Positions 8,592 to 49,921 of a stretch of DNA of 64,000 nt are shown here, piece after piece; the stretch's first letter is position 1, and every line of letters begins with the position of its first letter. The position numbers and the translations under genes are program-made. Origin of the DNA: a phage; NCBI GenBank assembly GCA_017676145.1, contig GCA_017676145.1_3628.1. One strand, 5' to 3'. Below the pieces are notes generated by a model. That model did no database searches. It saw only the letters and a list, made by a program, of their open reading frames with translations, and was not told the origin of the DNA.

Positions 8592-8831
8592 ATGTATAAG
8601 TCGTTTTCAATTTACTCAAGACAGGCAAAACACTACACAGAGATTCTGATCACTCAGAAAAAATCTGTAGAAGGTGAGTGGGAATATCATCATAAAATGT
8701 TGCGTCCAGATTGGGTTTTTGATAGACTTATTGCTATGATTCCCCTTGGAGAAGTATACCCTCTGACAGGTCATAGGGATGCTTGGGATTTAATTGATTA
8801 CATAGATTCATTTAAGGAGCCCAGTGTATGA
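8592..8831 (+). CDS. hypothetical protein (79 aa)
   Basis: Track ORF with G-rich SD upstream; stop overlaps next start. Confidence 0.5.
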   Translation: MYKSFSIYSRQAKHYTEILITQKKSVEGEWEYHHKMLRPDWVFDRLIAMIPLGEVYPLTGHRDAWDLIDYIDSFKEPSV

Positions 8832-9226
8832 AGATTGAGATCACTAAAGAAGGTAAGAAAGTGTCTGGCGATTATGCAACAGTAATTCGGGATGTAATGT
8901 TCGAAGTCACTAAGATTGGCACATCCAAGGTTGGTCAAACGGTGAGTGTGCAAGGTAATATCGCCTCAGGAGAGAAGATAATCATCGTGATCAAAGGACA
9001 AGACCCTGTGGAAGGAACAGTGGGCCGAGGAGGCTACCTGTGCATTTCTGAAGAACCGCGCATGCTGGTTGCTGATGACTCCACAGGTAAAAAGCGGGTA
9101 TGTAACACTGACGAGGTGATGATTATCTATCCAGTCAACCCGGATGATCCGGCAACATGGATTGTGGGAAATGAAATCTTCTCTTTAGAAGAGTTATCCT
9201 TCCCAGCTCCGCGCTTTGTTCAGTAA
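8828..9226 (+). CDS. hypothetical protein (132 aa)
   Basis: Track ORF; aaggag SD 8 nt upstream of ATG. Confidence 0.55.
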   Translation: MKIEITKEGKKVSGDYATVIRDVMFEVTKIGTSKVGQTVSVQGNIASGEKIIIVIKGQDPVEGTVGRGGYLCISEEPRMLVADDSTGKKRVCNTDEVMIIYPVNPDDPATWIVGNEIFSLEELSFPAPRFVQ

Positions 9227-14110: not shown

Positions 14111-14157
14111 TATTTTCAAAGAGGGTTTGGTTCCCTCTTCTTTAAAAGGAGCACGTT

Positions 14158-14475
14158 ATGCAGATTGAAATCACTGGCAACGTAGAGATCACTGAAGGTA
14201 TGGTGTCTTTCATTTCCCACAAAATGTCCAAACTGGAGCGTTTGCACCCATCTGCCAACTATGCACGTGTGAGTGTAAAAGTTGAAAATGATCACCAGGA
14301 AGTTATGGCTTTTATTTTTGACAATTCTGGGAAAGAAGTTATCGCCAAAGCTAAAGGTAGCGATGCTTACGAGGCAACTGACCGTATGGTGGATGTTGCA
14401 GCACGCCAGTTGGCTAAATGCGGTGGAAAGAAAGGTAAGGGAAAAGGTAAAGTAAAGATTGACTTTTGGGATTGA
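14158..14475 (+). CDS. hpf: ribosome hibernation promoting factor / RaiA (S30AE family) homolog
   Basis: N-terminus MQIEITGNVEITEG and ...AARQLAK closely parallel E. coli HPF (MQLNITGNNVEITEA...LARQLTK); 105 aa with Lys/Gly-rich tail. Confidence 0.75.
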   Translation: MQIEITGNVEITEGMVSFISHKMSKLERLHPSANYARVSVKVENDHQEVMAFIFDNSGKEVIAKAKGSDAYEATDRMVDVAARQLAKCGGKKGKGKGKVKIDFWD

Positions 14476-18364: not shown

Positions 18365-18373
18365 TGACAAAGA

Positions 18374-18398
18374 GAGGGGCTTGGGCCCCTCTTTTTAC
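18374..18398 (+). terminator. rho-independent terminator
   Basis: gaggggc-ttgg-gcccctc hairpin followed by TTTTT. Confidence 0.65.
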
Positions 18399-19054: not shown

Positions 19055-19079
19055 CAAAATATCAAATTTAAGGCACCTA

Positions 19080-19105
19080 GGACGCTCTGTGGCGTCCTTT
19101 TCTTT
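19080..19105 (+). terminator. rho-independent terminator closing the rightward early-like block
   Basis: ggacgc-tctgtg-gcgtcc hairpin followed by TTTTCTTT. Confidence 0.65.
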
Positions 19106-22470: not shown

Positions 22471-22497
22471 ACAAAAAAGAAAGGGGCCTAAGCCCCC
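22471..22497 (-). terminator. rho-independent terminator at the 3' end of the leftward block
   Basis: On - strand ggggc-ttag-gcccc hairpin followed by TTTCTTTTTT; 15 nt after stop of 22512..22775. Confidence 0.6.
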
Positions 22498-22511
22498 TTG
22501 ATAATGTTGTA

Positions 22512-22838: not shown

Positions 22839-23111
22839 TTACTTGCGGCGGCAAAATTCAAGCGTTTTTAATTGATAATCTTCCTCAGCCTGGAGTACAA
22901 CCGCCTCGATCATTTCGTTGGCATTGGTGAAGCCATACCCTTGAGCGAACTCATCCGCGCCACCTTCGTGATCATGTTCTGCGTTCATCGCTTCCACAAA
23001 ATGGAATTCAAGATTATTGAGGTAAGGGCTTGATGTTCCGTCCTCTTTTTCGATGAGATCCCAAATAGCGTTGAAACGTGATTCGACTTCTTGGTTAATC
23101 CAGCTTGACAC
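22839..23111 (-). CDS. hypothetical acidic protein (90 aa)
   Basis: Track ORF (GTG start) downstream of promoter 23166..23194 and 5' UTR hairpin. Confidence 0.45.
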   Translation of the reverse strand: MSSWINQEVESRFNAIWDLIEKEDGTSSPYLNNLEFHFVEAMNAEHDHEGGADEFAQGYGFTNANEMIEAVVLQAEEDYQLKTLEFCRRK

Positions 23112-23165
23112 GGCGTTTTCCTCTCTTCTGGTTGTTGTGTGGGCACTTTTGCCCCTTCAAGGTAA

Positions 23166-23194
23166 ATGCTACCCCACCACCTGGCAGATGTCAA
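23166..23194 (-). promoter_or_regulatory. sigma70-like promoter (TTGACA-17-TAGCAT) with CCAGGTGG spacer box
   Basis: - strand ttgacatctgccaggtggtggggtagcat; the spacer box gccaggtgg is shared with the + strand promoter at 31824. Confidence 0.4.
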
Positions 23195-23280: not shown

Positions 23281-23310
23281 AAAAACAGGACCATTGCAAG
23301 CCCTGTTTTA
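23281..23310 (-). terminator. putative intrinsic terminator (short stem)
   Basis: - strand acagg...cctgt stem followed by TTTTT, after stop of 23324..23515. Confidence 0.3.
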
Positions 23311-23660: not shown

Positions 23661-23945
23661 TTAACGGTTCACGTAAGTTTTCCCGTTTACGGTTATCGGC
23701 AGATCCTCCAGGTCTGGATCTTCTTTAAGGTCGCGAGCAAGCTCACCGCACCGGATACCTTCGAATCCGTAGTACTCTGTTGTGCCGTCCTTAAAAGTTT
23801 TTGCGGCAAGGCATAACCGATAAGTAACACCGATTTGATTGACGGCATGGATATCAGTTAGATCTACCTCTTTTGCCAGCTCTTTAGCCATTACAGGCGC
23901 ATTAAGTCCAATAACCAGGGCAACTACTGCGATCATCTTTTTCAT
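23661..23945 (-). CDS. small secreted protein (94 aa) with N-terminal signal peptide
   Basis: MKKMIAVVALVIGLNAPVMA signal-like N-terminus followed by two Cys. Confidence 0.55.
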   Translation of the reverse strand: MKKMIAVVALVIGLNAPVMAKELAKEVDLTDIHAVNQIGVTYRLCLAAKTFKDGTTEYYGFEGIRCGELARDLKEDPDLEDLPITVNGKTYVNR

Positions 23946-24034
23946 GTTGTCTATTCTCTTTCTGCTGCGTTTAAGGCGGTCACCGCCGCCTGTTTATGCT
24001 TTGTTAGTTAATGGGGCGTACGGTATAGATTAAA

Positions 24035-24250
24035 CTATGCTGTACGCTCAACTATAACAACGGCTTGAGGGATCTCACCTTCCACCACTATCAAGGCTTT
24101 TTTCTGCGTGATAGATATCTTTACCCGCTTCAGCGTGGCGGTAAAATCTTTCATTTCGTCACGTGGTGTTTTAGTGCAATACCAGATCTCAGGCTTACCT
24201 ATTTGCAAGCCGCGTAAAAATTCCGTTTTGCCTGTTTTGTTCGTGATCAT
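24035..24250 (-). CDS. hypothetical protein (71 aa)
   Basis: ATG at M4 of track ORF 24035..24259; aaggtga SD. Confidence 0.45.
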   Translation of the reverse strand: MITNKTGKTEFLRGLQIGKPEIWYCTKTPRDEMKDFTATLKRVKISITQKKALIVVEGEIPQAVVIVERTA

Positions 24251-24260
24251 TTGTTTCACC

Positions 24261-24365
24261 TTACCCGATACCGTGGGAAGATAGGATCATGTTAGCCATA
24301 GTTGCAACCACTCCAACCGATAATGCCATGCCAACTACTACAACCGTGAAAATTTTTTCTAACAT
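24261..24365 (-). CDS. micro-ORF encoding TM peptide (34 aa)
   Basis: MLEKIFTVVVVGMALSVGVVATMANMILSSHGIG; not on track. Confidence 0.3.
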   Translation of the reverse strand: MLEKIFTVVVVGMALSVGVVATMANMILSSHGIG

Positions 24366-24437
24366 GATTCCACCATCATTAATGGGCGTTGCCTTATTGC
24401 CCCGCCCTATGTCGTACATTTTTCTTCTGATCCTCTG

Positions 24438-24701
24438 TTAGCATACGATAGCGATCACGCCGCCACAAATAAAAGGTAAATCAAAACGGTCTACCTTGCA
24501 AGCTATTTTTAAACGAAAGGCAACATAAAAGAAAAGTTGCAAACAATCGATCATTGTGTTAGCTGTTGAAACGCTGCCAGCATTAAACATCGCCCCGCCC
24601 ACGGCGTTAAACGTTGCGTTACTCACGAAAGCGAAAAGGCAAGCGATCACGGTGGCGATCATAATGTTGCGTTTTGTCAATCTGTAAATGATGTTTCTCA
24701 T
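24438..24701 (-). CDS. small membrane protein (87 aa)
   Basis: Track ORF with hydrophobic segments; start uncertain (alternative internal ATG at about 24662). Confidence 0.4.
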   Translation of the reverse strand: MRNIIYRLTKRNIMIATVIACLFAFVSNATFNAVGGAMFNAGSVSTANTMIDCLQLFFYVAFRLKIACKVDRFDLPFICGGVIAIVC

Positions 24702-24765
24702 TCTGTCATGTTGGCGGCATCGCTGCCGCCTTATGTATTATGCTTTGTTAGATTGTTGTTTGTTG

Positions 24766-24999
24766 TCAACTATTTTCAAAAAATTTTTCTGCTGTAATAT
24801 TTTTCCCGGTAGGGTTCGCTACTTTCAAAATTTTATCATGCACTGGACGCCCAAAAGAATAAGCGCCGTACACAGTACACCAATAATCGCCGTCAGGCTG
24901 TACTATTACCGCCGCATAGGGTACGCCTTTTTCGTTTTTGCTGACAAAATAGATCACATTGCCATTAATAGCCTCAGCGCGTTTAATTTGTTCCATCAT
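24766..24999 (-). CDS. hypothetical protein (77 aa)
   Basis: Track ORF; aggtga SD. Confidence 0.5.
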   Translation of the reverse strand: MMEQIKRAEAINGNVIYFVSKNEKGVPYAAVIVQPDGDYWCTVYGAYSFGRPVHDKILKVANPTGKNITAEKFFENS

Positions 25000-25062
25000 G
25001 ATGATTCACCTATCTTTATTTTTTCATAGTTTCAGGAGGGGCCTTTTTCGGCCCCGCCAGGC

Positions 25063-25347
25063 TTATTTATTGATGGCGTGCAGCGGGAAAGGTACGCCAG
25101 GTTGATAGATAACTTTTACAACCTCATCAGGGCAAAAGAAGTTACAAAATTCACCCTGATAAGCCTCATCCTCTTTTAATTCTTCACCAACATACTGGAA
25201 AAAGTAGTCAATGCTTGGATAATCCTGGCCGGGATTATAGTCGACCATTGTCAGGACTAACTCAAGATCGTTGCGTAGGATATGCATGCCCGCTTTTAAG
25301 TATTTTGCTTCCATTTCTACTACATCGCCAAAGGTAACAATAGCCAT
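25063..25347 (-). CDS. hypothetical acidic protein (94 aa)
   Basis: Track ORF; agaggag SD; downstream of promoter 25404..25432. Confidence 0.5.
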   Translation of the reverse strand: MAIVTFGDVVEMEAKYLKAGMHILRNDLELVLTMVDYNPGQDYPSIDYFFQYVGEELKEDEAYQGEFCNFFCPDEVVKVIYQPGVPFPLHAINK

Positions 25348-25403
25348 GATTTTAACTCCTCTCTATCCGGTTAATGATTGGGGGCCGCCCCCCTGATACG
25401 TCC

Positions 25404-25432
25404 TATTATCCATATTGTAGGGCTTGATGCAA
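25404..25432 (-). promoter_or_regulatory. sigma70-like promoter (TTGCAT-17-ATAATA)
   Basis: - strand ttgcatcaagccctacaatatggataata; shares AATATGGATAATA with promoter 26223..26251. Confidence 0.45.
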
Positions 25433-25571
25433 GTACTTTTTAAAAATTTTTTAAACGCCTTGGGGGCCGCTGTAGCGCTAAAATAAAAAAGGCCATGCAA
25501 CCGCATAGCCTTTGTGCGATTATATCGCTGCAGGCCCTGCCACGGGCCTTATTTTGCATCATTTGCCGGAA

Positions 25572-25877
25572 TTATCTGGAGAAAACATCGTTCACAATAG
25601 CGATCACAATGCCGCCCACCTTGTCACGGTCAACAATGCACAAATCACCATAGATCATGTGGTAGTCTGGATGATCTTTCACGGAATAGTCAATAAGTGT
25701 CTTCTTATCATCCAGCTTTTTAACTTCCACAGTCATTGTAATAAATTGATCGTTAAAGGCACTATTGCGGAAGATCATTACCTGGCCGCCTTGACATCCA
25801 GTGATCTCAACTTCCACGCCGTCTACGATCTGACCATCAAAGAAATAAAGATTATTGGCGGGTATGAACATGATCAT
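25572..25877 (-). CDS. hypothetical protein (101 aa)
   Basis: Track ORF; aaaaggag SD. Confidence 0.5.
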   Translation of the reverse strand: MIMFIPANNLYFFDGQIVDGVEVEITGCQGGQVMIFRNSAFNDQFITMTVEVKKLDDKKTLIDYSVKDHPDYHMIYGDLCIVDRDKVGGIVIAIVNDVFSR

Positions 25878-25915
25878 TGCTCCTTTTTGCGCTGATTATT
25901 TTAGCAGGGTTTAAA

Positions 25916-25961
25916 TTTACTTTATTTGATGGCCCTGGAGTCAAGGCCATCTAAAAATAAA
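25916..25961 (-). repeat. 46-bp conserved intergenic element, copy A
   Basis: tttactttatttgatggccctggagtcaaggccatctaaaaataaa immediately 3' of stop codon of 25964..26164; near-identical to copies at 29635 and 30257. Confidence 0.6.
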
Positions 25962-25963
25962 CT

Positions 25964-26164
25964 TTACAGGCCTACAATGTCTTTAATTCGTTTTACTGCT
26001 GCCTCAGCGCCTTGAGGGTAAAAATTATGGTAACCAATCACGCGGGTAATACTGATCGCCGCCTGATGATCTTCGTAATACCCCTTGAATATTTCTTGAC
26101 CATCAACCAGCACAGCAATTTTTTCTTCTTTTTTGAAGTTAATAACGCGGATATTGTTGCTCAT
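25964..26164 (-). CDS. hypothetical protein (66 aa)
   Basis: Track ORF; aaaaggag SD; own promoter and 5' UTR hairpin upstream. Confidence 0.5.
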   Translation of the reverse strand: MSNNIRVINFKKEEKIAVLVDGQEIFKGYYEDHQAAISITRVIGYHNFYPQGAEAAVKRIKDIVGL

Positions 26165-26207
26165 TTTGTTTCTCCTTTTGGAACTTTGTCTGTGTGGTGG
26201 GGAGTGT

Positions 26208-26222
26208 CTCCCCGTTGATTGT
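26208..26222 (-). promoter_or_regulatory. 5' UTR stem-loop GGGGAGACACTCCCC between promoter and SD
   Basis: Perfect palindrome located between -10 of promoter 26223..26251 and the RBS of 25964..26164. Confidence 0.45.
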
Positions 26223-26251
26223 TATTATCCATATTCAGGACCGGATTGCAA
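26223..26251 (-). promoter_or_regulatory. sigma70-like promoter (TTGCAA-17-ATAATA)
   Basis: - strand ttgcaatccggtcctgaatatggataata. Confidence 0.45.
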
Positions 26252-26261
26252 CACCCCGGAA

Positions 26262-26306
26262 GAAAAATTTTTTGAAAAAAGTTAGGCCCCCCAGGGATCG
26301 GGGGCC
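26262..26306 (-). terminator. rho-independent terminator
   Basis: - strand ggcccccgatccctggggggcc hairpin followed by long T-rich tract. Confidence 0.55.
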
Positions 26307-26310
26307 GTTA

Positions 26311-26430
26311 TCAGGTACGTACAGCGATAAAATACATCCCTACGCCTAACAATATTTCAAGGGCGAGGATCTCCAGCCATACCATAACACGGCGCGCCTT
26401 ATCGGTGCGGAGCTTATCCTTGGGTGTCAT
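26311..26430 (-). CDS. micro-ORF encoding TM protein (39 aa)
   Basis: ATG after strong SD (aggaggaaaggggga); MTPKDKLRTDKARRVMVWLEILALEILLGVGMYFIAVRT. Not on track. Confidence 0.4.
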   Translation of the reverse strand: MTPKDKLRTDKARRVMVWLEILALEILLGVGMYFIAVRT

Positions 26431-26450
26431 CGTCTCCCCCTTTCCTCCTG

Positions 26451-26672
26451 TTAGCGGTTACGTGGTTTGCAATGGCCCCCAGTAGTCCGATCACGACACA
26501 CACCGCAAGAAAAATTATCTCTGTCGTTGTTCGATCCATTGTTATAAAATTCCTCAAGATCAGGCCTAAAAGTAAATCCTTCGTTATTGAATCCATCCCG
26601 CCAGGCGGCTGGCTTCAAATCTTCACTAAATGGATTAATTAACGTGGTATTATTTAAACGGCTGGCCCACAT
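26451..26672 (-). CDS. hypothetical Asn-rich protein (73 aa), uncertain
   Basis: ATG at M7 of track ORF 26451..26690 with gaggag SD; competes with alternative frame 26414..26596. Confidence 0.3.
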   Translation of the reverse strand: MWASRLNNTTLINPFSEDLKPAAWRDGFNNEGFTFRPDLEEFYNNGSNNDRDNFSCGVCRDRTTGGHCKPRNR

Positions 26673-27021
26673 ATTTTCTACTCCTCTCAAATAAGCGATC
26701 CGCCTCAGTTAAACAAATCTCATGGGCGTGATCTCTGGTTTTAGCCTCATCGAAAACCTGTTGCGCAAGGCTGCAACGTAGGGAGATCGGGAGATCACTA
26801 TAATAGGCGTTGACAAACGTTTGAGCGTCGTACAGGTCTGAAAATACTTTACCCTTTCTATTATTCCCCTTGTCAACAATTGCAAGGATAATTAATACAA
26901 TAGTTGCAACCACCCCCAGGAAAATAGATATAATAAACCATAAAAAGGCGGATCTTCCCATCTTGCCAGCGATCCAGGCGTTAAATAAGGCGACCAACAC
27001 AGTCAAAATAATAAATTCCAT
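26650..27021 (-). CDS. membrane protein (123 aa, two N-terminal TM helices)
   Basis: ATG at M12 of track ORF; aagaggta SD; MEFIILTVLVALFNAWIAG...FLWFIISIFLGVVATIVLIILAIV. Confidence 0.5.
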   Translation of the reverse strand: MEFIILTVLVALFNAWIAGKMGRSAFLWFIISIFLGVVATIVLIILAIVDKGNNRKGKVFSDLYDAQTFVNAYYSDLPISLRCSLAQQVFDEAKTRDHAHEICLTEADRLFERSRKYVGQPFK

Positions 27022-27085
27022 TCTATGTACCTCTTTTGCAGTTCTTATCAACAATAAGGCGGCAAATATGCCGCCTGCTACCTGA

Positions 27086-27466
27086 TTAAAAATTATCGCC
27101 GTAAATCTTTCCGCTTTCTACCCATACCACCACGCGAGGCATACTATCCCACACGTCTTGTTTTAGATTGAGCGCGTGCAATTCTTCGGTGGTGCTCATA
27201 CCAGGCACGGGCTGATTGTATACTGCAAAACGACCGCCTGCATAATCATAGGCCAGGGTTAAATCACACTGGATCATCTTTTTGATCATGGCATTAAGCA
27301 TGGCGTTAGCCGCATATTGATCACGTTTTAAAGGCAACTCTTTGATTAGTTTGCGATAGTTTTCGATATGGTCGCACACTGTTTCACGCGGAAGATCTTT
27401 CATATCTTCACGGAATGTGACCAGGTTAAACATAACGGTGTCAATAGCCTTGGTGGTGTTTTTCAT
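27086..27466 (-). CDS. hypothetical protein (126 aa)
   Basis: Track ORF; agagga SD; promoter and 5' UTR hairpin (ggggcaagacgtttgcccc) upstream. Confidence 0.5.
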   Translation of the reverse strand: MKNTTKAIDTVMFNLVTFREDMKDLPRETVCDHIENYRKLIKELPLKRDQYAANAMLNAMIKKMIQCDLTLAYDYAGGRFAVYNQPVPGMSTTEELHALNLKQDVWDSMPRVVVWVESGKIYGDNF

Positions 27467-27519
27467 GATGTTATCCTCTATGTTTTGTGTTGGGGCAAAC
27501 GTCTTGCCCCTTGAGTTTT

Positions 27520-27547
27520 AATATAGCAGGTTTTTAGGTTATTGCAA
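27520..27547 (-). promoter_or_regulatory. sigma70-like promoter (TTGCAA-16-TATATT)
   Basis: - strand ttgcaataacctaaaaacctgctatatt upstream of 27086..27466. Confidence 0.45.
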
Positions 27548-27551
27548 CACT

Positions 27552-28178
27552 TTATTTATGAAAACTCATTTCCCCATATTCATCCACATCAAACCTCCAA
27601 TCATTGGCCGCGATAAGGCCGATCAGGTTTTCTGCGGTGAACTGCTCTAGATAGGCCTCCTCTAGGTCTACGTAAACCTTGCGGGATAGCTCCCGTACCG
27701 TCTCGGTGATCAGCTCCTCCAGGTCTTCCACTTTGTTTTCTTGTTTAGCGGTCAGATCTAGCCATGTGGTATCAATGTACCCGCTTACAGTGTTTTCATG
27801 GCTGTAACGGCTGTACTTGTCGCGTTCAATACTGGCGGATAGTTCGCCATCGTGCATTGTGCCGAACAAGTGACGAATTGATCGGAACTTGGTCAGGGCC
27901 TTGACTTTACGCAAGAATTTTTCTAAGTCTACATTTTCAGCACTGATCGATGCGCCATCGCCTTGACACCAAAAGCCGGACCAATGTACTTCAGTATCTT
28001 CAAGGCCGTACTCTGGAAAAACTTGTTCTTTATAGTATTCAATTACATTTTCTGAGAAAAAATCATCCTCGCTGCGTTCTTCTCTTTCGCGGACCATTTC
28101 AATGGCTTTTTCTTTTTGTTCGTCGGTCAGCACGTCGAAAGATAAATTGTAACCTGTGGTAATGTTAACGGTGGTCAT
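27552..28178 (-). CDS. hypothetical acidic protein (208 aa)
   Basis: Track ORF; acaggagaaaa SD; no domain recognised by eye (HWSGFWCQGDGAS segment noted). Confidence 0.55.
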   Translation of the reverse strand: MTTVNITTGYNLSFDVLTDEQKEKAIEMVREREERSEDDFFSENVIEYYKEQVFPEYGLEDTEVHWSGFWCQGDGASISAENVDLEKFLRKVKALTKFRSIRHLFGTMHDGELSASIERDKYSRYSHENTVSGYIDTTWLDLTAKQENKVEDLEELITETVRELSRKVYVDLEEAYLEQFTAENLIGLIAANDWRFDVDEYGEMSFHK

Positions 28179-28206
28179 GATATTTTCTCCTGTTTTCTTT
28201 GTTAAT

Positions 28207-28225
28207 GGCGGGAAGTTTTCCCGCC
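28207..28225 (-). promoter_or_regulatory. 5' UTR stem-loop GGCGGGAAAACTTCCCGCC between promoter and SD
   Basis: 8-bp perfect stem; sits between -10 of promoter 28236..28263 and RBS of 27552..28178; related hairpins at about 30728, 24713, 23972. Confidence 0.5.
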
Positions 28226-28235
28226 TATGTTTTTA

Positions 28236-28263
28236 ATTATACTTATTGAGATTTACTTGTCAA
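28236..28263 (-). promoter_or_regulatory. sigma70-like promoter (TTGACA-16-TATAAT)
   Basis: - strand ttgacaagtaaatctcaataagtataat. Confidence 0.5.
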
Positions 28264-28513
28264 CACTATTTTTTAAATTATTGTGGCGCAAAATGTTTAA
28301 AATCTCCTCAACGTCATCAACACGGCGGCAATTTTTAAACGCTACCAATTGCCCCATGATTTTAATCACTGGGCGGCCTTGCCAGTGCCCTTGAAGAAAG
28401 CGCGCTTTGACTTTATCGGTGGAACTATCCCGCCACCAGATAGCTTTATTGTTGCAGTAGTAAAAATTATTCAGGATAACATCAACTTTATCAAAATTTT
28501 TTAATTTACGCAT
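28253..28513 (-). CDS. hypothetical protein (86 aa)
   Basis: Track ORF; aaaggag SD. Confidence 0.5.
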   Translation of the reverse strand: MRKLKNFDKVDVILNNFYYCNNKAIWWRDSSTDKVKARFLQGHWQGRPVIKIMGQLVAFKNCRRVDDVEEILNILRHNNLKNSVDK

Positions 28514-28544
28514 GGCGTTTACTCCTTTCTCTCTTTGATGTGGT

Positions 28545-28572
28545 TATTATAGCTAACCTGTTGACGATGTCA
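28545..28572 (-). promoter_or_regulatory. sigma70-like promoter (TTGACA-16-TATAAT)
   Basis: - strand ttgacatcgtcaacaggttagctataat upstream of 28253..28513. Confidence 0.5.
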
Positions 28573-28694
28573 ATGATATTTTTAACGCTATAAAACGGCC
28601 CTAGGCGATGCTTTCAGGTTAAAGGGGGGCGATTGCATAGGTGGGGGCCTTTTTGGCGCTTACAGGGCCAACCAGGGGCGCTATTCGTAGGATA

Positions 28695-28724
28695 GAAATA
28701 AAAAGCCCCGCACAATGGCGGGGC
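28695..28724 (-). terminator. rho-independent terminator
   Basis: - strand gccccgc-cattgt-gcggggc followed by TTTTTATTTC. Confidence 0.6.
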
Positions 28725-28732
28725 GTTGGTTG

Positions 28733-28930
28733 TTATTTGTCTTTATGGCGGTATCGTTCTGCCTGTCGTTCACGTTCCAAAAGTAGGCCGGGCAATTTAC
28801 GATCATAATGATTCCGCCAGATCTTCCCAAACCTTTTTGGCTTATTCAGTTTATTGTTGCGCTGTCGGCGTTCTGGCAGATCTTCGGAATCATGAGGGCG
28901 CTTTATAATTTTCTCGAAATTAATTTTCAT
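28733..28930 (-). CDS. small basic protein (65 aa)
   Basis: ATG at M9 of track ORF 28733..28954; aagggggg SD. Confidence 0.45.
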   Translation of the reverse strand: MKINFEKIIKRPHDSEDLPERRQRNNKLNKPKRFGKIWRNHYDRKLPGLLLERERQAERYRHKDK

Positions 28931-29273
28931 ATATTCCCCCCTTGCTAACTTCAATATTGGCCTGAATAGCCCGGATACGGCGCTTTATACCTTCCCGATC
29001 TGTGTGATCGTATCCCCAAAAGTCAACAATTTTTGCGCCGCCCGCCTCCAAGCGGTATAGTGTTTCCTGCATTTTGTAAGCCGGGATCGGTCGCGGTGTT
29101 ACTTGGTCACCTTCTTTATTTTTATACTTTATAATATAATCTTCGTTATCGTTGAATGTCCAAAATGGATATTCTGCAAGGGCGGTACTTCCTCTTTCCT
29201 TTTTATCCTGGATCTTGTTTACAATTAAAGCCGTAGCAATAGCGCCAATAATAAAACTAGTCCCGCTAATCAT
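28920..29273 (-). CDS. membrane-anchored protein (117 aa, N-terminal TM helix)
   Basis: ATG at M3 of track ORF; aaaggagaaa SD; MISGTSFIIGAIATALIV. Confidence 0.5.
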   Translation of the reverse strand: MISGTSFIIGAIATALIVNKIQDKKERGSTALAEYPFWTFNDNEDYIIKYKNKEGDQVTPRPIPAYKMQETLYRLEAGGAKIVDFWGYDHTDREGIKRRIRAIQANIEVSKGGIYEN

Positions 29274-29349
29274 GTGCACTTTCTCCTTTCATGGTGTTAA
29301 TAAATTATCTTTATAGATGGCCCTGCAACCAGGACCACCGAAAAAATAA

Positions 29350-29595
29350 CTATTTCACAATACCTACAAAACAGATCCCGCCTTCACCTATGTAAGCAAT
29401 ATCGGTTACTTTGTAGTCGGTTAAGATCTGTTTATTCAGATCATTAATAAAATCAGTCATTACGTTGGTATAATTGTCTTCCATATCTAGGGAATAGTCC
29501 CAGGTGTAGACCTTTTTACGTCCGAAGCCTTTTACCATGATACGGGCGCTTTTGGTGTTGGTGGGCGCATAATATTTTGTGATTAGTGCTGCCAT
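29350..29595 (-). CDS. hypothetical protein (81 aa)
   Basis: Track ORF; gaggag SD. Confidence 0.5.
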   Translation of the reverse strand: MAALITKYYAPTNTKSARIMVKGFGRKKVYTWDYSLDMEDNYTNVMTDFINDLNKQILTDYKVTDIAYIGEGGICFVGIVK

Positions 29596-29634
29596 GGTTT
29601 TAACTCCTCATTAGTTCAGTGTTAACAGTGTAAA

Positions 29635-29680
29635 GTTTACTTTATTGATGGCCCTGGAGTCAAGGCCATCTAAAAATAAA
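29635..29680 (-). repeat. 46-bp conserved intergenic element, copy B
   Basis: gtttactttattgatggccctggagtcaaggccatctaaaaataaa directly after stop of 29683..30024; identical to copy C. Confidence 0.6.
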
Positions 29681-29682
29681 TT

Positions 29683-30024
29683 TTACTCGTTTTCTTCCAG
29701 CTCTGAAAGCTCCTCTTTCACTTCTTCCAGCTCTGTCTGCAATTCCTGGTATTCCTCATCGTCCTCAATATCCAGGCTGTCGATGTAGTCGCTAAATCCG
29801 CAGCGGTAAGCGATAGGATCTAACTCCTTGAGGATACGCGACGGAAGAAAAGAAATGTTACCGATCATAATTTCGCCGTGGATCTCGTCTAACCATTCAT
29901 CATAGTTTTCGTCGTACTTGTCCTCGTCGATTTCAAAGTTATCGATCTTGTTCTCAAGATCTGCGATCTGTTTTTTCAGCGCGGCGATCTGCATAGCTTT
30001 TTCTGCGGCGGTCATAGTAGTCAT
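29683..30024 (-). CDS. hypothetical acidic coiled-coil protein (113 aa)
   Basis: Track ORF; aaaaggagaaaa SD. Confidence 0.5.
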   Translation of the reverse strand: MTTMTAAEKAMQIAALKKQIADLENKIDNFEIDEDKYDENYDEWLDEIHGEIMIGNISFLPSRILKELDPIAYRCGFSDYIDSLDIEDDEEYQELQTELEEVKEELSELEENE

Positions 30025-30074
30025 GGTGTTTTCTCCTTTTTTGTGTTTTGGGAAGTTTTCCCGTTTACGTGTTT

Positions 30075-30103
30075 AAGTATACTGATTTGGGTTAGCTTGT
30101 CAA
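30075..30103 (-). promoter_or_regulatory. sigma70-like promoter (TTGACA-17-ATACTT)
   Basis: - strand ttgacaagctaacccaaatcagtatactt upstream of 29683..30024. Confidence 0.4.
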
Positions 30104-30256
30104 TTAAAAATTTAAGAAAAATTTTGCAAAACTGTTGGCGCTACTCATTAACATTTGCGCCAGGATGTAACCGACAACGCAAACGATAATAGTTACCTTT
30201 GTGTATTGGCGTGTAGTGCTCATCTTAAAGCCCCCTTTTTCGCTTAGTTGAGACTA

Positions 30257-30302
30257 GTTTACTTTATTGATGGCCCTGGAGTCAAGGCCATCTAAAAATA
30301 AA
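30257..30302 (-). repeat. 46-bp conserved intergenic element, copy C
   Basis: Identical to copy B; directly after stop of 30304..30708. Confidence 0.6.
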
Positions 30303-30303
30303 C

Positions 30304-30708
30304 TTAATAAGTTTTCAGTACTTTCCCGTCCAACCTGTCAAGCTGGATCTCAATAGCTGCAGAAAACCTATTGTACACCACGTCGCCCATAGAATCCAAC
30401 CAATCTATGACGTTATATACCTGCTCTTTATTCTTACAGGTCCGGATCCGTTTCATGATGTAAGCCGGATCAATATTGGTACTCTCGTTGGTGTTCTCCT
30501 GTGCCTGGTTTGCCGTATTAGTTACATCTTTAATGGCCTTTACCACCACCTGGAACGGCTTTAAGGTGCCTTTTGCGTTCATCTCACGCGCTTTTGCGGC
30601 GCGGTTGTTATATGTTACACAACGGCGGCAAATGTTGATCAAATGCATGTCAATAATTTTTTCATCGTTTGCCAGCTCGTTCATGATGCGGCGTACGTTC
30701 TTATTCAT
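30304..30708 (-). CDS. hypothetical protein (134 aa)
   Basis: Track ORF; 5' UTR hairpin ggcgggaatgtctcccgcc upstream. Confidence 0.5.
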   Translation of the reverse strand: MNKNVRRIMNELANDEKIIDMHLINICRRCVTYNNRAAKAREMNAKGTLKPFQVVVKAIKDVTNTANQAQENTNESTNIDPAYIMKRIRTCKNKEQVYNVIDWLDSMGDVVYNRFSAAIEIQLDRLDGKVLKTY

Positions 30709-30727
30709 GATCTTTTTCCTTTGTTCT

Positions 30728-30746
30728 GGCGGGAGACATTCCCGCC
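30728..30746 (-). promoter_or_regulatory. 5' UTR stem-loop GGCGGGAATGTCTCCCGCC
   Basis: Perfect 8-bp stem between putative promoter and RBS of 30304..30708. Confidence 0.45.
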
Positions 30747-30790
30747 TTTTGTGCCTAGTTTACTTGAATTTTGCAGCGTGTCAATGATTT

Positions 30791-31189
30791 TTATTCGTGG
30801 GCACATGTCACAATGTGCTTTTTATAGCCCAGGCGGTCAGCAAGTGCCGCCAAAAACTCTTCTTCGTAGATCCAGCCGTCGGCAGTGATCCCCATAGCAT
30901 TTAATGCGCTCTCAAGTGCTGCGTTGGCTTTATCATAACCGTGACCGCTCGCCTTGCCGCCAGTATAGCCGTACTTATTGTTCTTGTTGTCGTGTATCCA
31001 AAAAACGCAGTAGTAAGTGTTCCCGCTGGCGGCGGCATAATACCGGATCTCAGCTACTTCGTGCAAATTATTGTCATCGTCCAGGCCCACCAGATTATAG
31101 GCCTTGTAAAATCCACGATCACGGCGGCAGTTCTTGACATCAGAAAAAGAAAAGTCCGCATTATCAAAATTAAAGGTGGTGGTTTTCAT
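30791..31189 (-). CDS. hypothetical protein (132 aa)
   Basis: Track ORF; gagagga SD. Confidence 0.5.
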   Translation of the reverse strand: MKTTTFNFDNADFSFSDVKNCRRDRGFYKAYNLVGLDDDNNLHEVAEIRYYAAASGNTYYCVFWIHDNKNNKYGYTGGKASGHGYDKANAALESALNAMGITADGWIYEEEFLAALADRLGYKKHIVTCAHE

Positions 31190-32065: not shown

Positions 32066-32696
32066 GATTATCATTCAAAATTCTAAATGAGAACTTTTCG
32101 CATTTCATAAATTTAGTTAGCATGCTAATTACCTACCGTGACAATTCTATATAAAATAATAACTCCTAAAATATTCCCATATAGAAATTTTAAAAATCCA
32201 TTTCTGAAAACGAAAAATCGATTTAGTCCCCAAAAATTTCAGGTCGAGCGCCGGAACGATTTCCAGAAAATCTGATTCAGAAAACGAAAAACAGATCGAG
32301 TACTGAGAGATTTATCGAGAAAAATTTTCAGAAAATCCAATCTTTGAAACGAAAAACAGATCGAGTACTGGGAAAGATGTATCAAAACCTATTGATAATA
32401 ATTAACTTATTGTTATAAAAGGTCAGAAGTAAGTTGGGAAAGTTCTGGTAGAAGGGTGAGAGTGTGTGCGGAAAATCTGGAACGGTGATTTGAAGTACGG
32501 TGCGAACGATAGGATGATCAGCACAGCTTATCGTGCCTGTCTTGAAAAATCCATTTTAGTTTTCGATCCATTTTCTGATTTTCTAAGGATTTCCAAATAT
32601 CTGCAAATATCTGATAAATAAGGGAAAATCCATTACATATTTTCCCTCATCGCCTAAAATTTTTATAATTTTAAAATAAATACTACCATAAATATC

Positions 32697-40417: not shown

Positions 40418-40448
40418 TGCTGTGGTCCCCTTTCGTTTTGATAGGGCC

Positions 40449-40477
40449 ATTATATTAGGCCCCATCACTGTTGTCAA
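40449..40477 (-). promoter_or_regulatory. sigma70-like promoter (TTGACA-17-TATAAT)
   Basis: - strand ttgacaacagtgatggggcctaatataat. Confidence 0.55.
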
Positions 40478-41952: not shown

Positions 41953-42609
41953 TCAGCTTACCGAGAAATTCTGCTCGGACATACTCTTCGGGGACCTCTT
42001 CCCTTTGTTTTTACACCTTGCGGTTTTAGGTATCCCAGTGTACCATGCCCAACTCCTCCCAGTCAAGATATTGGAAATGGTTATTTGATTAACACCGAAA
42101 AGATCTGCTATAGCTTGCTGTGACATACCTGTTTTGGAAAGCTTTAATATTTCGTCAACATCTCTCTCTTTAAGTTTTGCACAGTATGATCTTTCCCCTC
42201 TTGTTTTACAGTAATCGTAGTCCACATCTTGGGCATTTTTTGAAGGCGAGGCCCATTCAAGGTTATCAGCAGCATTGTTTAGACGATTATGGTCTTTATG
42301 ATTAATCGGCACATAATCCAGCCCTGCTGCCTTACACTCTTCTACAAGCTCTTTTGAGGGAGGCTCTAGAAAGGTCTCGGCAATTAACCTGTGAAGCAAT
42401 TCCGATCTTCCATCCACATTTACTTGAATGTAACCGCTACTGTCTACGCTACCTTTTAAAATCCTGTCAGGGACAGCTTTGAAAGTAACTTTACCTGTTT
42501 GGTTACTGTACTTTCTCAGGTAAGACAGCCTTTTAATCCTTCCTTTGCTGCTAACTTCATAGTCGGCCTCCTTGCCAACCAGTTTTCTCCATTCCTCCAT
42601 AGCAAACAT
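41953..42609 (-). CDS. free-standing HNH homing endonuclease (NUMOD4-like N-terminus, HNH core, C-terminal HTH)
   Basis: EEWRKLVGKEADYEVSSKGRIKR (NUMOD4-like), INHKDHNRLNNAADNLEW (HNH), GMSQQAIADLFGVNQITISNIL (HTH); located 12 nt downstream of DNA polymerase exon 2. Confidence 0.75.
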   Translation of the reverse strand: MFAMEEWRKLVGKEADYEVSSKGRIKRLSYLRKYSNQTGKVTFKAVPDRILKGSVDSSGYIQVNVDGRSELLHRLIAETFLEPPSKELVEECKAAGLDYVPINHKDHNRLNNAADNLEWASPSKNAQDVDYDYCKTRGERSYCAKLKERDVDEILKLSKTGMSQQAIADLFGVNQITISNILTGRSWAWYTGIPKTARCKNKGKRSPKSMSEQNFSVS

Positions 42610-42974: not shown

Positions 42975-43302
42975 CAATAGTTCAGGTAGGTCGTTAAGCT
43001 ACCCCGCACCATTACGTGCATAGCCATACAGTTTCCCGTATGGATCGGACTATCTCACTGCCTTGTCACCAAGGCACCTCTCATTTCGACCGCACTTGCT
43101 GGCCTACTCTACTCGCTTCTTCACCCCAAACTGTGTTGGAGCTATGCTTTCGATAGTCTCTGAACGTTCATCCTCTCGGATGCTTCGCTGCGGATTAGCA
43201 TATTGAGCTTTTACCATGGTTAGGTGTAAAAGTCAACTTAGCCTTCCCGTCAATTAAAGAGGTTTTCGACGTGCATCACTGCACGAAGCCACAATGTTAT
43301 TT
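42975..43302 (-). mobile_element. ORF-less group I intron interrupting DNA polymerase motif C
   Basis: 328 nt between H and DE codons of motif C; exon 1 ends in U, intron ends in G; P7-like pairing AGACUAU / AUAGUC present; in-frame stop 1 codon into intron. Confidence 0.55.
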
Positions 43303-45726
43303 ATGGTAATAAATAATCCGACGAACACCCTCATCATACCATCCACGCTTCACCAGCTGGTGGTGCATGAGGATTCCCACCAAGTCGCACAACGAGGCAC
43401 CGCCATTTTGCTGATATGCATTAAGCAAAGAGTGTTTAGAGCGGGTCCAAATGGCATGACCGTCAAAAGAGTAGATGAATTTCTTACCTGTTGCTTCCCA
43501 GAATTTCTCCAGATCCTCTTTACGCCCCTTAAGACCTGGGTTGGCATCCCAGAGAGCATCGATTACTCTCTGCCCCAGCTCTGGAGAGATATCCAGCATA
43601 TCTGCAACTTTATCTTTTTGTGCCCCGTACATAACCCCATACGTGACAGGCTTACCATCGTTACGAGACACCTCCCTGCCTGCTACTTTTGTATATGCCT
43701 CAGCATTGTTTTGGTGCGCATCTCCGTTACTTACAACATCATAGTACAGACCGTTGTCGAACTCAAAGGCACCCCAAGCCCCGATAAGCTGCTCTAAGTT
43801 GGACCCGTCAATACCGATCTCAAAGTATCCGGGAGGAACACCCCACAGACTACGCATCTCTTTACCCATAACCACTTTAGGAGATGGTTTAGGCATGTTT
43901 GCACAAATGCTGTGTTTCTGTCTGGAAGTGTTTGTTAATCCAGAACTTTTAGCAGGAAGCTTATGGTCAATCTTCAAACGTGGATGATTAAGAAGACCAG
44001 TATCAACCTTATCCTCCTTGATTGGATCAAGGACCGATCTACGGTTTCGCAAGGATAACCACAAGACGATATCTTTAGCCATCTCTCCGTTCAACTTTTC
44101 AAGATTCGGACATAGGTGTCCAAACGTATCTTTCAGTTGCGGAGAAGTAATAAGCGCTCTGGCTTTTCTACGTATCTTCCCAAACACTTCCTTTTTAATC
44201 CTTTCTGAGTTAGGGAAGCTTCGGAACTTGTGCACGGTTGTCTGAAACTTAGCATCAGTTTTGTTCCAGAAGTTTATAATTAGGTCACAATACTCTGACT
44301 CTAAAAGCTCGTCCATATATGCATATACTCGTGCATCAACATCAGCATCAGGCAGAGCTTTCTTCTTGCTGTCTTTAGTTACATCCTTAGTTCTCCACAT
44401 TGTTGGGAGCCAACCAGCACTAATCAGGTATCGCTTAATGTCGTCCTGATTGCTGATTTTCATAGGTATCTTGCAGTCAGGCATTCGCTTCTGCTGTAGG
44501 TCACTTATTGCCTGATCCATTAGCTCTTTAGGTAAAGGGTGTGGTGTAGAAGTTCCTTTGATATACCCCCTCAAGAAATCAGCCATCTTATCTGGGTCTT
44601 TACAGCCCATCTCTTCACACCATTTTATCCCCATTTTGCTGACATCCCCTGCAGAGGTAAATGCTCGCTTAGGAGGGGCTTTGAACTCTAAAGCGCTCAT
44701 GTCCACAGGATAGCCAAGCTTGTCTTTTAACCATTTCCAACCATTATTGGAGATTGTCCCATCCTGGTTAAACGGCTTTTCAGGGAACTTAGGCCGCTGA
44801 GACATTGATAACTCTTTTAAAGGAAGTTGTGGTTCAACACGATCAGCGATCTCTTTCATCCACGCATCGCAGCGGTCACGTAAAGCAATAGCCCCATCTA
44901 TGTCGAAATACACACCCTGTCGAGCCTGCAGCTCCATCAGGAAATGCTGCAGCATGCCTCGGCGTAATGCATTCTTCCAGGTAATCTTCTTGAATCCTTT
45001 AGGCTTCTCTTTGGCAGGGTCATACATAAAGTTCTGCATGTCAGATTTGCCGTAGAATACACCTTTTGATTCCGCTACCAACTCTTTCCAGAGCAACTCC
45101 TGGATGATAACGTCCTCGAACACACGATCCACATATTTCCACAGTGGAAGCTCACGCCAGTCATCGATTTGAACTTTCTGGTTACCAAGGGCATAGCCCC
45201 ATGCCATAAGGCCATGAGGCCCAACAGGTTGCATTTTCTTGGTAACTGGATTGAATACTGCGTCCGGACAACCTTTTGGCAAAGGGCGGTCAGGCCACAA
45301 GATTCGGCTCATAGCTAACGTATCAAACAGATTAACCTGGTGGTCGTTGATAGTTCCCATGCATTTAGGGTCACGGAACATATCAAAATGAATACCAGAT
45401 AATCTCTCCATCAGCATAAAGTCATAACTGTAGCAGTTATGGCAGTTCAAAGCTGTTGGTGACCAGTCGGAATTGCCTGTAAGCCAACCTTCCAACTCCG
45501 AAAAATCTGCTATGCGGACTTCAAAATCTTTATAAAGAGTTTTCTTTGCTAGAATAAAGTTCTTAGCCTTCTCTACATCCTCTTCAGAGTAGTGTGTGCG
45601 GTCATTTAGAGGAAGGAACAGCATAAAACGGTTCTTATTCAGCTCTTTAAACAAACCGCAGTGATAATAAAGATCTGGATCTTCCAGCAAGCCCGAGGCC
45701 TCCAGATCGAAAGACCACATACTCAT
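43303..45726 (-). CDS. DNA polymerase (family A, T7-like, with 3'-5' exonuclease domain), exon 1
   Basis: Exo I motif FDLEASG; motif A-like GIDGSNLEQ; motif B RNDGKPVTYGVMYGAQ; ORF terminates right after ...IIYYH, immediately before motif C acidic residues. Confidence 0.8.
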
Positions 45727-49163: not shown

Positions 49164-49559
49164 TTATTCCTGAAAAGCAACGATATCATATGAACTTGCA
49201 GACGAGCCTGGTGAAGAGTGACTCCAGTCTAGGTCATCAGAGTAGTCAGCATACTGTGCACCACTCCTCAGTTTGTATTTTACCCACTTACCTGGTGCAG
49301 GGTTTTCACCACCTTCCCATGCTTCCCAGCCTTCTGGCAGGCCATCCTGAGAGTAATCGTCCACCTCGCTAATAATCTTAGGGTTTGGCACCAAGACCCA
49401 TGCAGGCTCTTCCTTCTTAGCAAGTGTCCACACAATGTATGTGTCTGAGCAGGAGCATGTCAGTAAAGTATACCCACTGTTCAGAACTTCTGCAAGCTCT
49501 TTTTCAGCATCTTCTAATTTGGTTAGGTGGTATTGGATAATCTTCACATCTGTAATCAT
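49164..49559 (-). CDS. hypothetical acidic protein (131 aa)
   Basis: Track ORF; aggagg SD; start overlaps upstream stop. Confidence 0.5.
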   Translation of the reverse strand: MITDVKIIQYHLTKLEDAEKELAEVLNSGYTLLTCSCSDTYIVWTLAKKEEPAWVLVPNPKIISEVDDYSQDGLPEGWEAWEGGENPAPGKWVKYKLRSGAQYADYSDDLDWSHSSPGSSASSYDIVAFQE

Positions 49560-49864
49560 TAGAAGCCTCCTACTTCTTCAGCAAATGCTGCTGCTGTTGT
49601 TGCTGCATCCAGATAGGACTCTAGTTCACGTGCTGCACGTTTATAAATCGAGTGGCGCAGATCGTTTGGCAGCTGGTGAAAATCCACCTCTTCTCCGTTG
49701 TGGTAAACATGCACATCCGTAATCTGTCTAAATCCATAATAATCAACATCAGAATCACGGCACTCTGGATCTGGCAACTGGACAACTGCCTGAGCCTCTA
49801 CAGTGAGCATATCGTCAAGTTCGAAATCTATTTCAAAAGTGTATGGTTTATAACGCTTCATCAT
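49559..49864 (-). CDS. hypothetical acidic protein (101 aa)
   Basis: Track ORF; 5' UTR palindrome ggggaggaactcctcccc upstream. Confidence 0.5.
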   Translation of the reverse strand: MMKRYKPYTFEIDFELDDMLTVEAQAVVQLPDPECRDSDVDYYGFRQITDVHVYHNGEEVDFHQLPNDLRHSIYKRAARELESYLDAATTAAAFAEEVGGF

Positions 49865-49921
49865 TCGGTGTTCTCTTCGGTTTTGTGGGGAGGAGTTCCT
49901 CCCCTATATACTCACATCTTA

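Follow-up and report, generated by a model that had tools for sequence, protein, structure and literature searches.

Promoter-early stem-loop (PeSL) cassettes are known from the T4-like phages RB49/phi1, PST/T4 and nt-1/KVP40 (Arbiol et al. 2010, PMC2839356; Comeau et al. 2014, PMC4122927). They combine a sigma70 early promoter and an AT-rich upstream region with a G-run/C-run stem-loop, and are found in hyperplastic regions with gene shuffling; five positional subclasses were distinguished, one of them "downstream of the -10" (PMC2839356). In PST/T4 and nt-1/KVP40 the stem-loop is located upstream of the promoter (PMC4122927). In both papers the stem-loop is taken to terminate or attenuate transcription, and mRNA stability is not discussed (PMC2839356, PMC4122927). 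Recombination at PeSLs is described as giving rise to mini-circles. Here we describe a family of GC-rich hairpins located between predicted promoters and the Shine-Dalgarno (SD) sequences of small genes, mainly on the - strand, in a stretch of 64,000 nucleotides (nt) of phage DNA (contig GCA_017676145.1_3628.1 of assembly GCA_017676145.1). The whole stretch is referred to as the window. Its bases 23900-30800 are, over their full length, 97% identical to Escherichia phage FV3 (Vequintavirus, an rV5-like myovirus), and 247 phage records match them. In the literature searched, leader hairpins are undescribed for rV5-like or related phages; the rV5 genome paper lists only 33 promoters and 20 terminators.

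PeSLs are the closest known system, and the cassettes of the window, as a counterpart in the rV5 group, resemble them in their near-consensus sigma70 early promoter, their AT-rich upstream region and the adjacent G-run/C-run stem-loop, followed by SD sequence and start codon, all within short gaps. As with PeSLs, their surroundings are small orphan genes within the variable part of a large virulent myovirus genome; more than one positional class occurs per genome, promoter copies with degenerate sequence and wrong spacing are present, and there is an association with the replacement of genes among close relatives. PeSL copies are similar enough, over about 100 bp, to recombine, and they flank indels. 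In the window, a 46-nt repeat cassette has two identical copies, one near copy and one diverged copy, and the leader-class cassettes have little in common beyond the boxes; the leader-class copies of the phages PBECO4 and ESCO5 are very alike. The differences from PeSLs concern the phage lineages that carry the cassettes, which are Vequintavirinae, Stephanstirmvirinae and Asteriusvirus here, and the dominance of the class with the stem-loop in the leader, a class that plays a minor part in RB49/phi1 and is missing from the descriptions of PST and nt-1. Moreover, the hairpins of the window lack U-tracts and occur alongside separate canonical terminators.

Class III transcripts of phage T7 carry a 5' stem-loop as well, the phi10 leader GGGAGACCACAACGGUUUCCC. 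There, as in the cassettes described here, a G-rich arm pairs with a C-rich arm near +1, upstream of a strong ribosome-binding site (RBS), but in T7 both the RNA polymerase and the promoter are the phage's own, and the sequences are unrelated. The preliminary description of the hairpins had stated that several contain GGGAGACA or TGTCTCCC. This is true for two hairpins, and the resemblance of GGGAGACA to the phi10 leader is not conserved in relatives, which have TGTTTCCC at 30728-30746. With rho-independent terminators the hairpins share a GC-rich stem of 5-9 bp and a short loop. Like the leaders of ompA and papA, they place a stable hairpin a few nt from the predicted 5' end of an otherwise unstructured leader with an accessible RBS, and depend on structure (PMC3997798). 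In contrast, ompA and papA are single host-gene cases with mapped 5' ends and measured half-lives, whereas the hairpins described here form a multi-copy early-gene family with predicted ends, and some of their predicted 5' tails (5-7 nt) are beyond the classical limit. The element is best described as a PeSL-like cassette whose stem-loop is carried in the leader and probably acts as a 5' stabiliser of the ompA type.

Layout of the leader hairpins

All seven hairpins of the preliminary description are present on the - strand. The positions given for 28207-28225, 30728-30746 and 24713-24730 were exact and those for 23974-23991 essentially so, whereas three others had to be moved by 5-9 nt (from 26208-26222 to 26199-26213, from about 27497-27517 to 27492-27510 and from about 49879-49896 to 49887-49904). 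Three further members were found at 30050-30062, 25380-25393 and 23141-23154. Eight hairpins have a promoter:

30728-30746, - strand: leader hairpin GGCGGGAatgtcTCCCGCC; promoter TTGACA-16-TAAACT at 30757-30784, 10 nt from the -10 to the stem, gene 30304-30708.
30050-30062, - strand: short leader hairpin GGGAAaacTTCCC; promoter TTGACA-16-TATACT at 30076-30103, 13 nt from the -10 to the stem, gene 29683-30024.
28207-28225, - strand: leader hairpin GGCGGGAAaacTTCCCGCC; consensus promoter TTGACA-16-TATAAT at 28236-28263, 10 nt from the -10 to the stem, gene 27552-28178.
27492-27510, - strand: leader hairpin GGGGCAAgacgtTTGCCCC; promoter TTGCAA-16-TATATT at 27520-27547, 9 nt from the -10 to the stem, gene 27086-27466.
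26199-26213, - strand: leader hairpin GGGGAGacaCTCCCC; promoter TTGCAA-16-GATAAT at 26224-26251, 10 nt from the -10 to the stem, gene 25964-26164.
25380-25393, - strand: leader hairpin GGGGGGcggCCCCC; promoter TTGCAT-16-GATAAT at 25405-25432, 11-12 nt from the -10 to the stem, gene 25063-25347.
23141-23154, - strand: leader hairpin GGGCAaaagTGCCC; promoter TTGACA-17-TAGCAT at 23166-23194, 11 nt from the -10 to the stem, gene 22839-23111 (GTG start).
49887-49904, - strand: leader hairpin GGGGAGGaactCCTCCCC; promoter TTGACT-17-TAAGAT at 49916-49944, 11 nt from the -10 to the stem, open reading frame (ORF) 49559-49864 (101 aa).

For these eight, the proposed order of promoter, stem-loop, SD sequence and ATG is supported. 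It is weaker for two of the hairpins listed earlier, of which one has a mis-spaced promoter and the other no recognisable -35:

24713-24730, - strand: hairpin GGCGGCAgcgaTGCCGCC; gene 24438-24701 downstream, degenerate promoter with TTGACA and CATAAT 21 nt apart.
23974-23991, - strand: hairpin AGGCGGcggtgaCCGCCT; gene 23661-23945 downstream, no recognisable -35.

At the place orthologous to 24713-24730, FV3 has a normal TTGACA-16-TAGAAT, followed after 10 nt by the stem. The hairpin of the window lies at a recombination junction, where homology with relatives breaks directly past the -35 at 24764. Upstream of both hairpins without a properly spaced sigma70 promoter the motif CTAACAAAGCATAA is found (23994-24007 and 24738-24751, - strand), which could be what is left of a promoter copy, or a promoter of another type. 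ESCO5 also has promoter-less hairpins in similarly short intergenic gaps, one of them with a similar downstream leader. A candidate member is located on the opposite strand:

14119-14139, + strand: TTGACA-17-TATCAT, 8 nt, hairpin AAGAGGGtttggttCCCTCTT, SD sequence and ATG of gene 14158-14475.

The cassettes are ordered as an upstream stop codon adjoining or inside an AT-rich stretch, -35, -10, about 10 nt, stem-loop, A-rich segment, SD sequence and start codon. The upstream genes' stop codons abut or overlap the promoter, and the AT fraction over the 22 nt preceding the -35 is 0.71-0.81, compared with 0.57 for the window. A sigma70-like -10 hexamer ends 9-13 nt upstream of the stem at all eight promoter-bearing hairpins, and their promoters show 9-12 of 12 matches to TTGACA-N16-18-TATAAT, one of them with a weak -35 (TTGCAT at 25380-25393, which failed the objective promoter filter). 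Among 44 curated cassettes from five phages, the stem begins mostly 9-14 nt past the -10 (range 6-14), and the sequences between -10 and stem are mutually unrelated among the cassettes of the window. The stems comprise 5-9 bp with the consensus GGGGAA-N3/4-TTCCCC, enclosing loops of 3 nt (24 cases), 4 nt (17 cases) or 5-7 nt (3 cases). An A-rich sequence of 8-13 nt separates stem and SD sequence, and the start codon follows 17-34 nt past the stem. Over the eight promoter-bearing hairpins of the window, the distance from stem end to SD sequence is about 6-21 nt.

This arrangement of promoter and hairpin is far beyond chance. A perfect GC-rich hairpin 6-16 nt past the -10 was found at 10 of 175 promoter-like sites in the window. 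Two of these 10 belong to other hairpin classes, one being a stem-loop of the repeat cassette and the other the terminator at 27057-27076. Dinucleotide shuffles gave a mean of 0.72 and a maximum of 4, and none of 500 reached 10. In unrelated viral contigs from IMG/VR a hairpin follows 2 of 121 mostly chance matches to the promoter pattern, which is too degenerate for finding cassettes and serves as a background control only. About four promoters of the window lack any hairpin.

When leaders were folded from the predicted start, the hairpin was the minimum-energy structure in 10 of 10 window leaders (-6 to -15 kcal/mol), with SD sequence and AUG mostly unpaired. Six leaders have z-scores between -3.2 and -4.6. 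The minimum free energies (in kcal/mol) are -15.4 for 24713-24730 (z -4.5), -15.1 for 49887-49904 (z -3.8), -14.6 for 28207-28225 (z -4.6), -14.4 for 30728-30746 (z -3.2), -13.3 for 27492-27510 (z -3.8) and -13.0 for 26199-26213 (z -3.2). The fold of 30050-30062, the core of which is identical to 28207-28225, is weak (-5.9 kcal/mol, z -0.9), and 25380-25393 does not fold better than its shuffles because the whole segment is G/C-rich.

The absence of U-tracts noted in the preliminary description was confirmed. In the 8 nt past the stem the leader hairpins of the window have on average 0.9 T, compared with 5-7 T for six canonical terminators; the corresponding values in the cassettes of other phages are 1.4-2.4 T. 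The tails consist of 51% A. The terminators used for contrast are:

28705-28724, - strand: canonical intrinsic terminator, GCCCCGCcattgtGCGGGGC then TTTTTATTT.
26285-26306, 25488-25513, 27057-27076, 23282-23309 and 22480-22499: other canonical terminators.

The canonical terminators follow the order stop codon, terminator, next promoter. Those at 26285-26306, 25488-25513 and 23282-23309 precede the promoters and hairpins at 26199-26213, 25380-25393 and 23141-23154, respectively. A second terminator at these three sites would be redundant, because a canonical U-tract terminator and a promoter are already located upstream. The earlier judgement that termination is less likely can thus be maintained on account of the missing U-tract, the position behind the promoter and these three sites. 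A rho-independent terminator is likewise a poorly supported candidate, since the sense strand has no U-tract, the hairpins are placed after the promoter and separate terminators with 5-7 T are nearby. The GenBank record of phage EdH4 labels the leader hairpins at 8824-8842 and 2477-2491 as "putative transcriptional terminator"; both lack a U-tract and have a promoter upstream.

Conservation of the stem and spread across phages

Nine relatives were compared, namely seven vequintaviruses and two metagenomic contigs (L001, which is EdH4, L002-L007 and L134 are among the labels). The hairpin is retained at 8 of 8 loci examined while its sequence changes. At 30728-30746 the 8-bp stem is kept in the orthologues and the loop is inverted in L134 (tgt to aca). 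The loop of 27492-27510 is reverse-complemented in FV3 (gacgt/acgtc), and L004 has GGGGCGAGatgaCTTGCCCC with a G.U pair at this locus. At 23974-23991 the window and FV3 share a loop orientation that is inverted relative to the other vequintaviruses (cggtga/ttaccg). Since loops are reverse-complemented between relatives at these three loci, loop sequence and orientation are irrelevant and the inversion of the palindromes takes place in the DNA, probably via template switching or recombination between the arms. Changes in the stems were found as well. The L134 orthologue of 28207-28225 is GGTGGGAAcaaTTCCCGCC with a U.G wobble, orthologues of 26199-26213 have GGGGAgctaaTCCCC or GGGGAaacaTCCCC, and one pair of 25380-25393 forms a series of G-C, G.U and A-U (GC four times, GU twice, AU once). 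Two single disruptive mutations occur among the orthologues, with the stem going from -14.6 to -8.4 kcal/mol. Judging from the compensatory series, the loop inversions and the diverse arms of the paralogues, structure rather than sequence is conserved. The comparison of strands favours selection on the sense RNA without being conclusive: embedded wobbles number 9-11 for G.U versus 1-3 for A.C, and the sense fold is more stable than the antisense fold in 31 versus 10 cases, the latter comparison being partly biased by stem calling.

In the orthologues of 25380-25393 (L001, L003, L004 and L005), the G-run on the 5' side varies from 5 to 8 G among otherwise near-identical phages, a sign of slippage in the homopolymer or of uncertain sequencing.

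The layout found in the window also stands ahead of small genes in Phapecoctavirus ESCO5, Justusliebigvirus arall, Avunavirus Av-05 and the 348-kb Asteriusvirus PBECO4. Across these genera it reads TTGACA/TTGCAA-N16-TAnnnT, then 9-14 nt, often with ACAT, followed by the hairpin, SD sequence and ATG, the hairpin arms being GGGCGGGAA-N3/4-TTCCCGCC or GGGGAGAA-N-TTCTCCCC. A core of GGGAA-N3/4-TTCCC recurs across genes and genera. From the loop outward, its pairs and those following are A-T, A-T, G-C, G-C, G-C and G-C; the variation consists mostly of transitions (GC, GT, AT) with purines staying on the 5' arm, although these pair counts are loop-anchored on stems selected for pairing and are not an independent proof of covariation. 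A MAFFT alignment of 31 paralogous hairpins was discarded as unusable for pair counts, for it set the length difference at the end and not in the loop. For the sequence GCGGGAA-N3-TTCCCGC, 115 sites were obtained from IMG/VR: 30 terminator-like, 81 neither and 5 of the promoter-leader type. The last five represent four loci, and the three contigs with a reported length are 97-153 kb. A protein-anchored search for related loci yielded eight, two of them useful, and an exact-protein look-up for transcriptome-derived contigs showing 5' ends returned one uninformative 3.7-kb Logan contig.

Possible functions

We tentatively propose that the hairpins are transcribed 5'-leader stem-loops in compact early-gene cassettes, which shield early mRNAs from RppH and RNase E in the manner of ompA from predicted transcription starts; we assign this reading a probability of about 0.45. 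Both enzymes require single-stranded 5' termini, and 5' structures stabilise E. coli mRNAs for this reason (PMC3997798). According to this proposal, host RNA polymerase would start 0-6 nt upstream of the stem, and the hairpin would form on leaving the polymerase, so that the single-stranded 5' end would be very short. RppH and RNase E's sensor for 5' monophosphates would then fail to engage. Early phage mRNAs would persist longer, and SD sequence and AUG would remain open to ribosomes. The cassette probably doubles as a recombination joint.

The location of the hairpins in the leader rests on promoter prediction, and we infer the transcription starts and the stabilising effect from it. With starts placed 6-9 nt past the -10 and a preference for pyrimidine-purine steps, the unpaired 5' tails are predicted to be 0-6 nt long in the window, with a median of 3-4, and 2-7 nt long in the other phages; therefore many but not all hairpins qualify. 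The preliminary description had offered three roles, namely translational operators, RNase-protecting 5' structures and antitermination signals. The second appears to be the best fit, given the predicted tails of 0-6 nt in the window, the conserved structure and the invertible loops, and the other two fare worse, as discussed below.

Two further cassette classes of the window have the stem-loop at the promoter itself:

29635-29680, - strand: 46-nt repeat cassette TTTATTTTTAGATGGCCTTGACTCCAGGGCCATCAATAAAGTAAAC; identical copy at 30257-30302, near copy at 25915-25961, diverged copy at 29304-29349.
40444-40462, - strand: hairpin GGGCCtaatataatGGCCC, enclosing the -10 TATAAT of the promoter 40449-40477; third cassette class.

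The 46-nt repeat is a second cassette class with a stem-loop that overlaps the -35: its 10-bp hairpin GATGGCCTTGactcCAGGGCCATC holds the -35 TTGACT within the stem-loop, and a T-run lies before it, not after.

Several points weigh against 5'-end protection. The predicted tails exceed 4 nt in about half of the cases and reach 7 nt in PBECO4. Emory, Bouvet and Belasco are said to have reported in 1992 that more than about 4 unpaired 5' nt weaken such protection. Promoter-less hairpins exist (23974-23991 and two sites in ESCO5), and in the cassettes with the stem-loop over the -35 or -10 it is outside the promoter's own transcript, which hints at a function that does not depend on the 5' end. The embedded wobbles among 46 unique hairpins, 11 G.U versus 3 A.C with a caller treating both strands alike, reflect just about 6 versus 2-3 independent events. 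The position of the hairpin, which is tightly spaced from the SD sequence, may also be just the remainder between promoter and ribosome footprint. Finally, simple stem-loops are readily bypassed by scanning RNase E (PMC9943677). Since RNase E scans past internal stem-loops, protection depends on a truly terminal hairpin, and a role of the hairpins as scanning obstacles was dropped because of this easy bypass (PMC9943677).

Doubtful, though ranked next, is a PeSL-type element in the original sense. Here the hairpin would attenuate upstream transcription, the cassette would mainly be a recombination substrate that shuffles orphan genes, and the place in the leader would be incidental. Arbiol et al. 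(2010) described a PeSL subclass downstream of the -10, and one PeSL stem-loop cut expression of a downstream lacZ as strongly as rrnB T1 does (PMC2839356). All three positional classes are present in the window, a Pfam scan of nine small - strand gene products (22.5-31.5 kb) gave no significant match, as would suit orphan genes, and the same promoter-hairpin module stands ahead of different genes in different phages. Three replacement or indel junction zones among vequintaviruses fall in cassette regions, one of them right past the -35, but these are few events. The missing U-tract argues against efficient intrinsic termination, and an efficient terminator behind its own promoter would silence its gene; in addition, three hairpins are located just downstream of a real terminator. 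The leader-class cassettes of the window share little sequence beyond the boxes and are therefore poor recombination substrates. Unlike here, the stem-loops of T4/PST and KVP40/nt-1 are upstream of the promoter.

A translation-level element, which would either act as an insulator that opens the RBS or nucleate a general early-mRNA repressor on the A-rich stretch (cf. T4 gene 32 and RegA), is clearly unlikely. It would account for a hairpin-SD distance that is as tight as the promoter-hairpin distance, for the promoter-less hairpins of ESCO5, which end 24-31 nt from the start codon and hence inside the 17-34 nt range of promoter-bearing ones, and for the SD sequence being unpaired in the predicted folds. 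However, terminator and promoter leave no upstream RNA that needs insulation, no candidate protein was identified, and variable arms, variable loops and loop inversion leave no common recognition sequence. For a sequence-specific translational operator in particular, differing arms and loops between sites and reverse-complemented loops in orthologues make the earlier suggestion improbable. Very improbable is also an operator in double-stranded DNA, in which a dimeric phage repressor would bind the inverted repeat (about +3 to +25) and shut off the early promoter. The palindrome is indeed at the usual position of an operator and the core GGGAA-N3/4-TTCCC is recurrent, but the spacing of the half-sites varies from 3 to 7 nt, the arms are diverse (GGCGGCA, GGGGAG, GGGGCAA, GGGGGG), and among the compensatory changes the G.T intermediates break DNA symmetry yet keep RNA pairing.

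Even less credible are antisense terminators on the + strand, for which the A-rich segment between -10 and stem would supply a T-rich tail in its complement. A consensus scan calls several hairpins terminator-like on the + strand, e.g. GGCGGGAAGTTTTCCCGCC TATGTTTTTA, and the antisense tails of the window have 3.9 T per 8 nt; in ESCO5 and PBECO4, however, cassettes with this layout have less T-rich antisense tails (3.1-3.3 T per 8 nt, e.g. tacgtggtaa), the wobble pairs favour the sense strand, and the region 22.5-59 kb contains no + strand genes or strong + strand promoters. Short GC hairpins directly behind early promoters are also reminiscent of boxB, and antitermination signals of the nut/boxB type, to be recognised by an N-like protein, were considered, but they are the least probable of the explanations compared here. 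Matches to boxA (CGCTCTTTA-like) number 17 versus 11.6 expected, with none adjoining a hairpin, the loops are 3-4 nt long, variable and invertible instead of a fixed purine-rich pentaloop, and one hairpin is present per gene, not per operon. An Rfam search of the region returned nothing at the gathering threshold, the sole hit with E<1 being an irrelevant flavivirus stem-loop (E 0.86). The antitermination role offered earlier is consequently unsupported, in view of the lack of boxA enrichment, the variable 3-4 nt loops and the absence of an Rfam match. With modest confidence, we place protection of the 5' end first, the PeSL attenuator or recombination element second and a role in translation third; the other rivals do not stand up to sequence tests.

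A more far-reaching and rather unlikely idea is that the hairpin, whose semi-conserved core keeps a fixed position behind early promoters in at least five genera of large coliphages, is not a generic stabiliser but a shared "self" mark, which would be read by a host or phage factor and spread horizontally with the promoter. Such a mark might exempt early transcripts from a phage-stimulated RNase E shut-off, or might recruit a conserved RNA-binding protein. rV5 reportedly encodes an Srd-like protein. The neighbouring candidate gene 60090-60575 proved to be an HNH endonuclease in Pfam and PHROG scans, which left the window with no confirmed Srd-like gene.

Genomic setting and implications

The gene map of the window is simple, with + strand genes up to about 19.05 kb, a sparse stretch, and - strand genes between about 22.5 and 59.4 kb. 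The hairpin array corresponds to small genes at the far end of the - strand unit. Four products of the array match only families of unknown function in a PHROGs scan, and the gene content of the hairpin region varies among close relatives.

The segment 19100-22500 is the convergence zone of the + and - strand units and contains few credible ORFs. Terminators around it are located at 18373-18392 (+), 19079-19098 (+) and 22480-22499 (-). ARAGORN found no tRNA genes in the whole window, and hence none in this zone. A group I catalytic intron is present at 43025-43312 on the - strand (Rfam RF00028, 75 bits, E 3e-17), within a 696-nt gap between the - strand ORFs 41953-42600 and 43297-45726, possibly the two exons of a single gene. 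The non-coding stretch of 622 nt at 32075-32696 contains three direct repeats of about 55 nt (32180-32373), which are 62-80% alike and spaced 65-74 nt apart, as well as a AAAAATCCATTT motif that recurs. The stretch has an iteron-like look and could correspond to a replication origin or to the box marked "non-coding" on the rV5 map.

If hairpins are indeed located at the 5' ends of early mRNAs, the phages concerned would follow a simple rule for early expression by host machinery alone. These are therapeutic-candidate coliphages of the rV5-, phi92-, ESCO5- and PBECO4-like types. Annotation pipelines mistake at least some leader hairpins for terminators, the EdH4 record being an example. The modules of promoter, hairpin and leader are compact, strong and naturally varied and could become expression parts. 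If the "self" mark were true, early transcripts of unrelated phages would use one common post-transcriptional signal. The PeSL concept would reach beyond T4-like phages, and the variant described here points to a role at the RNA level that was not considered in the PeSL papers.

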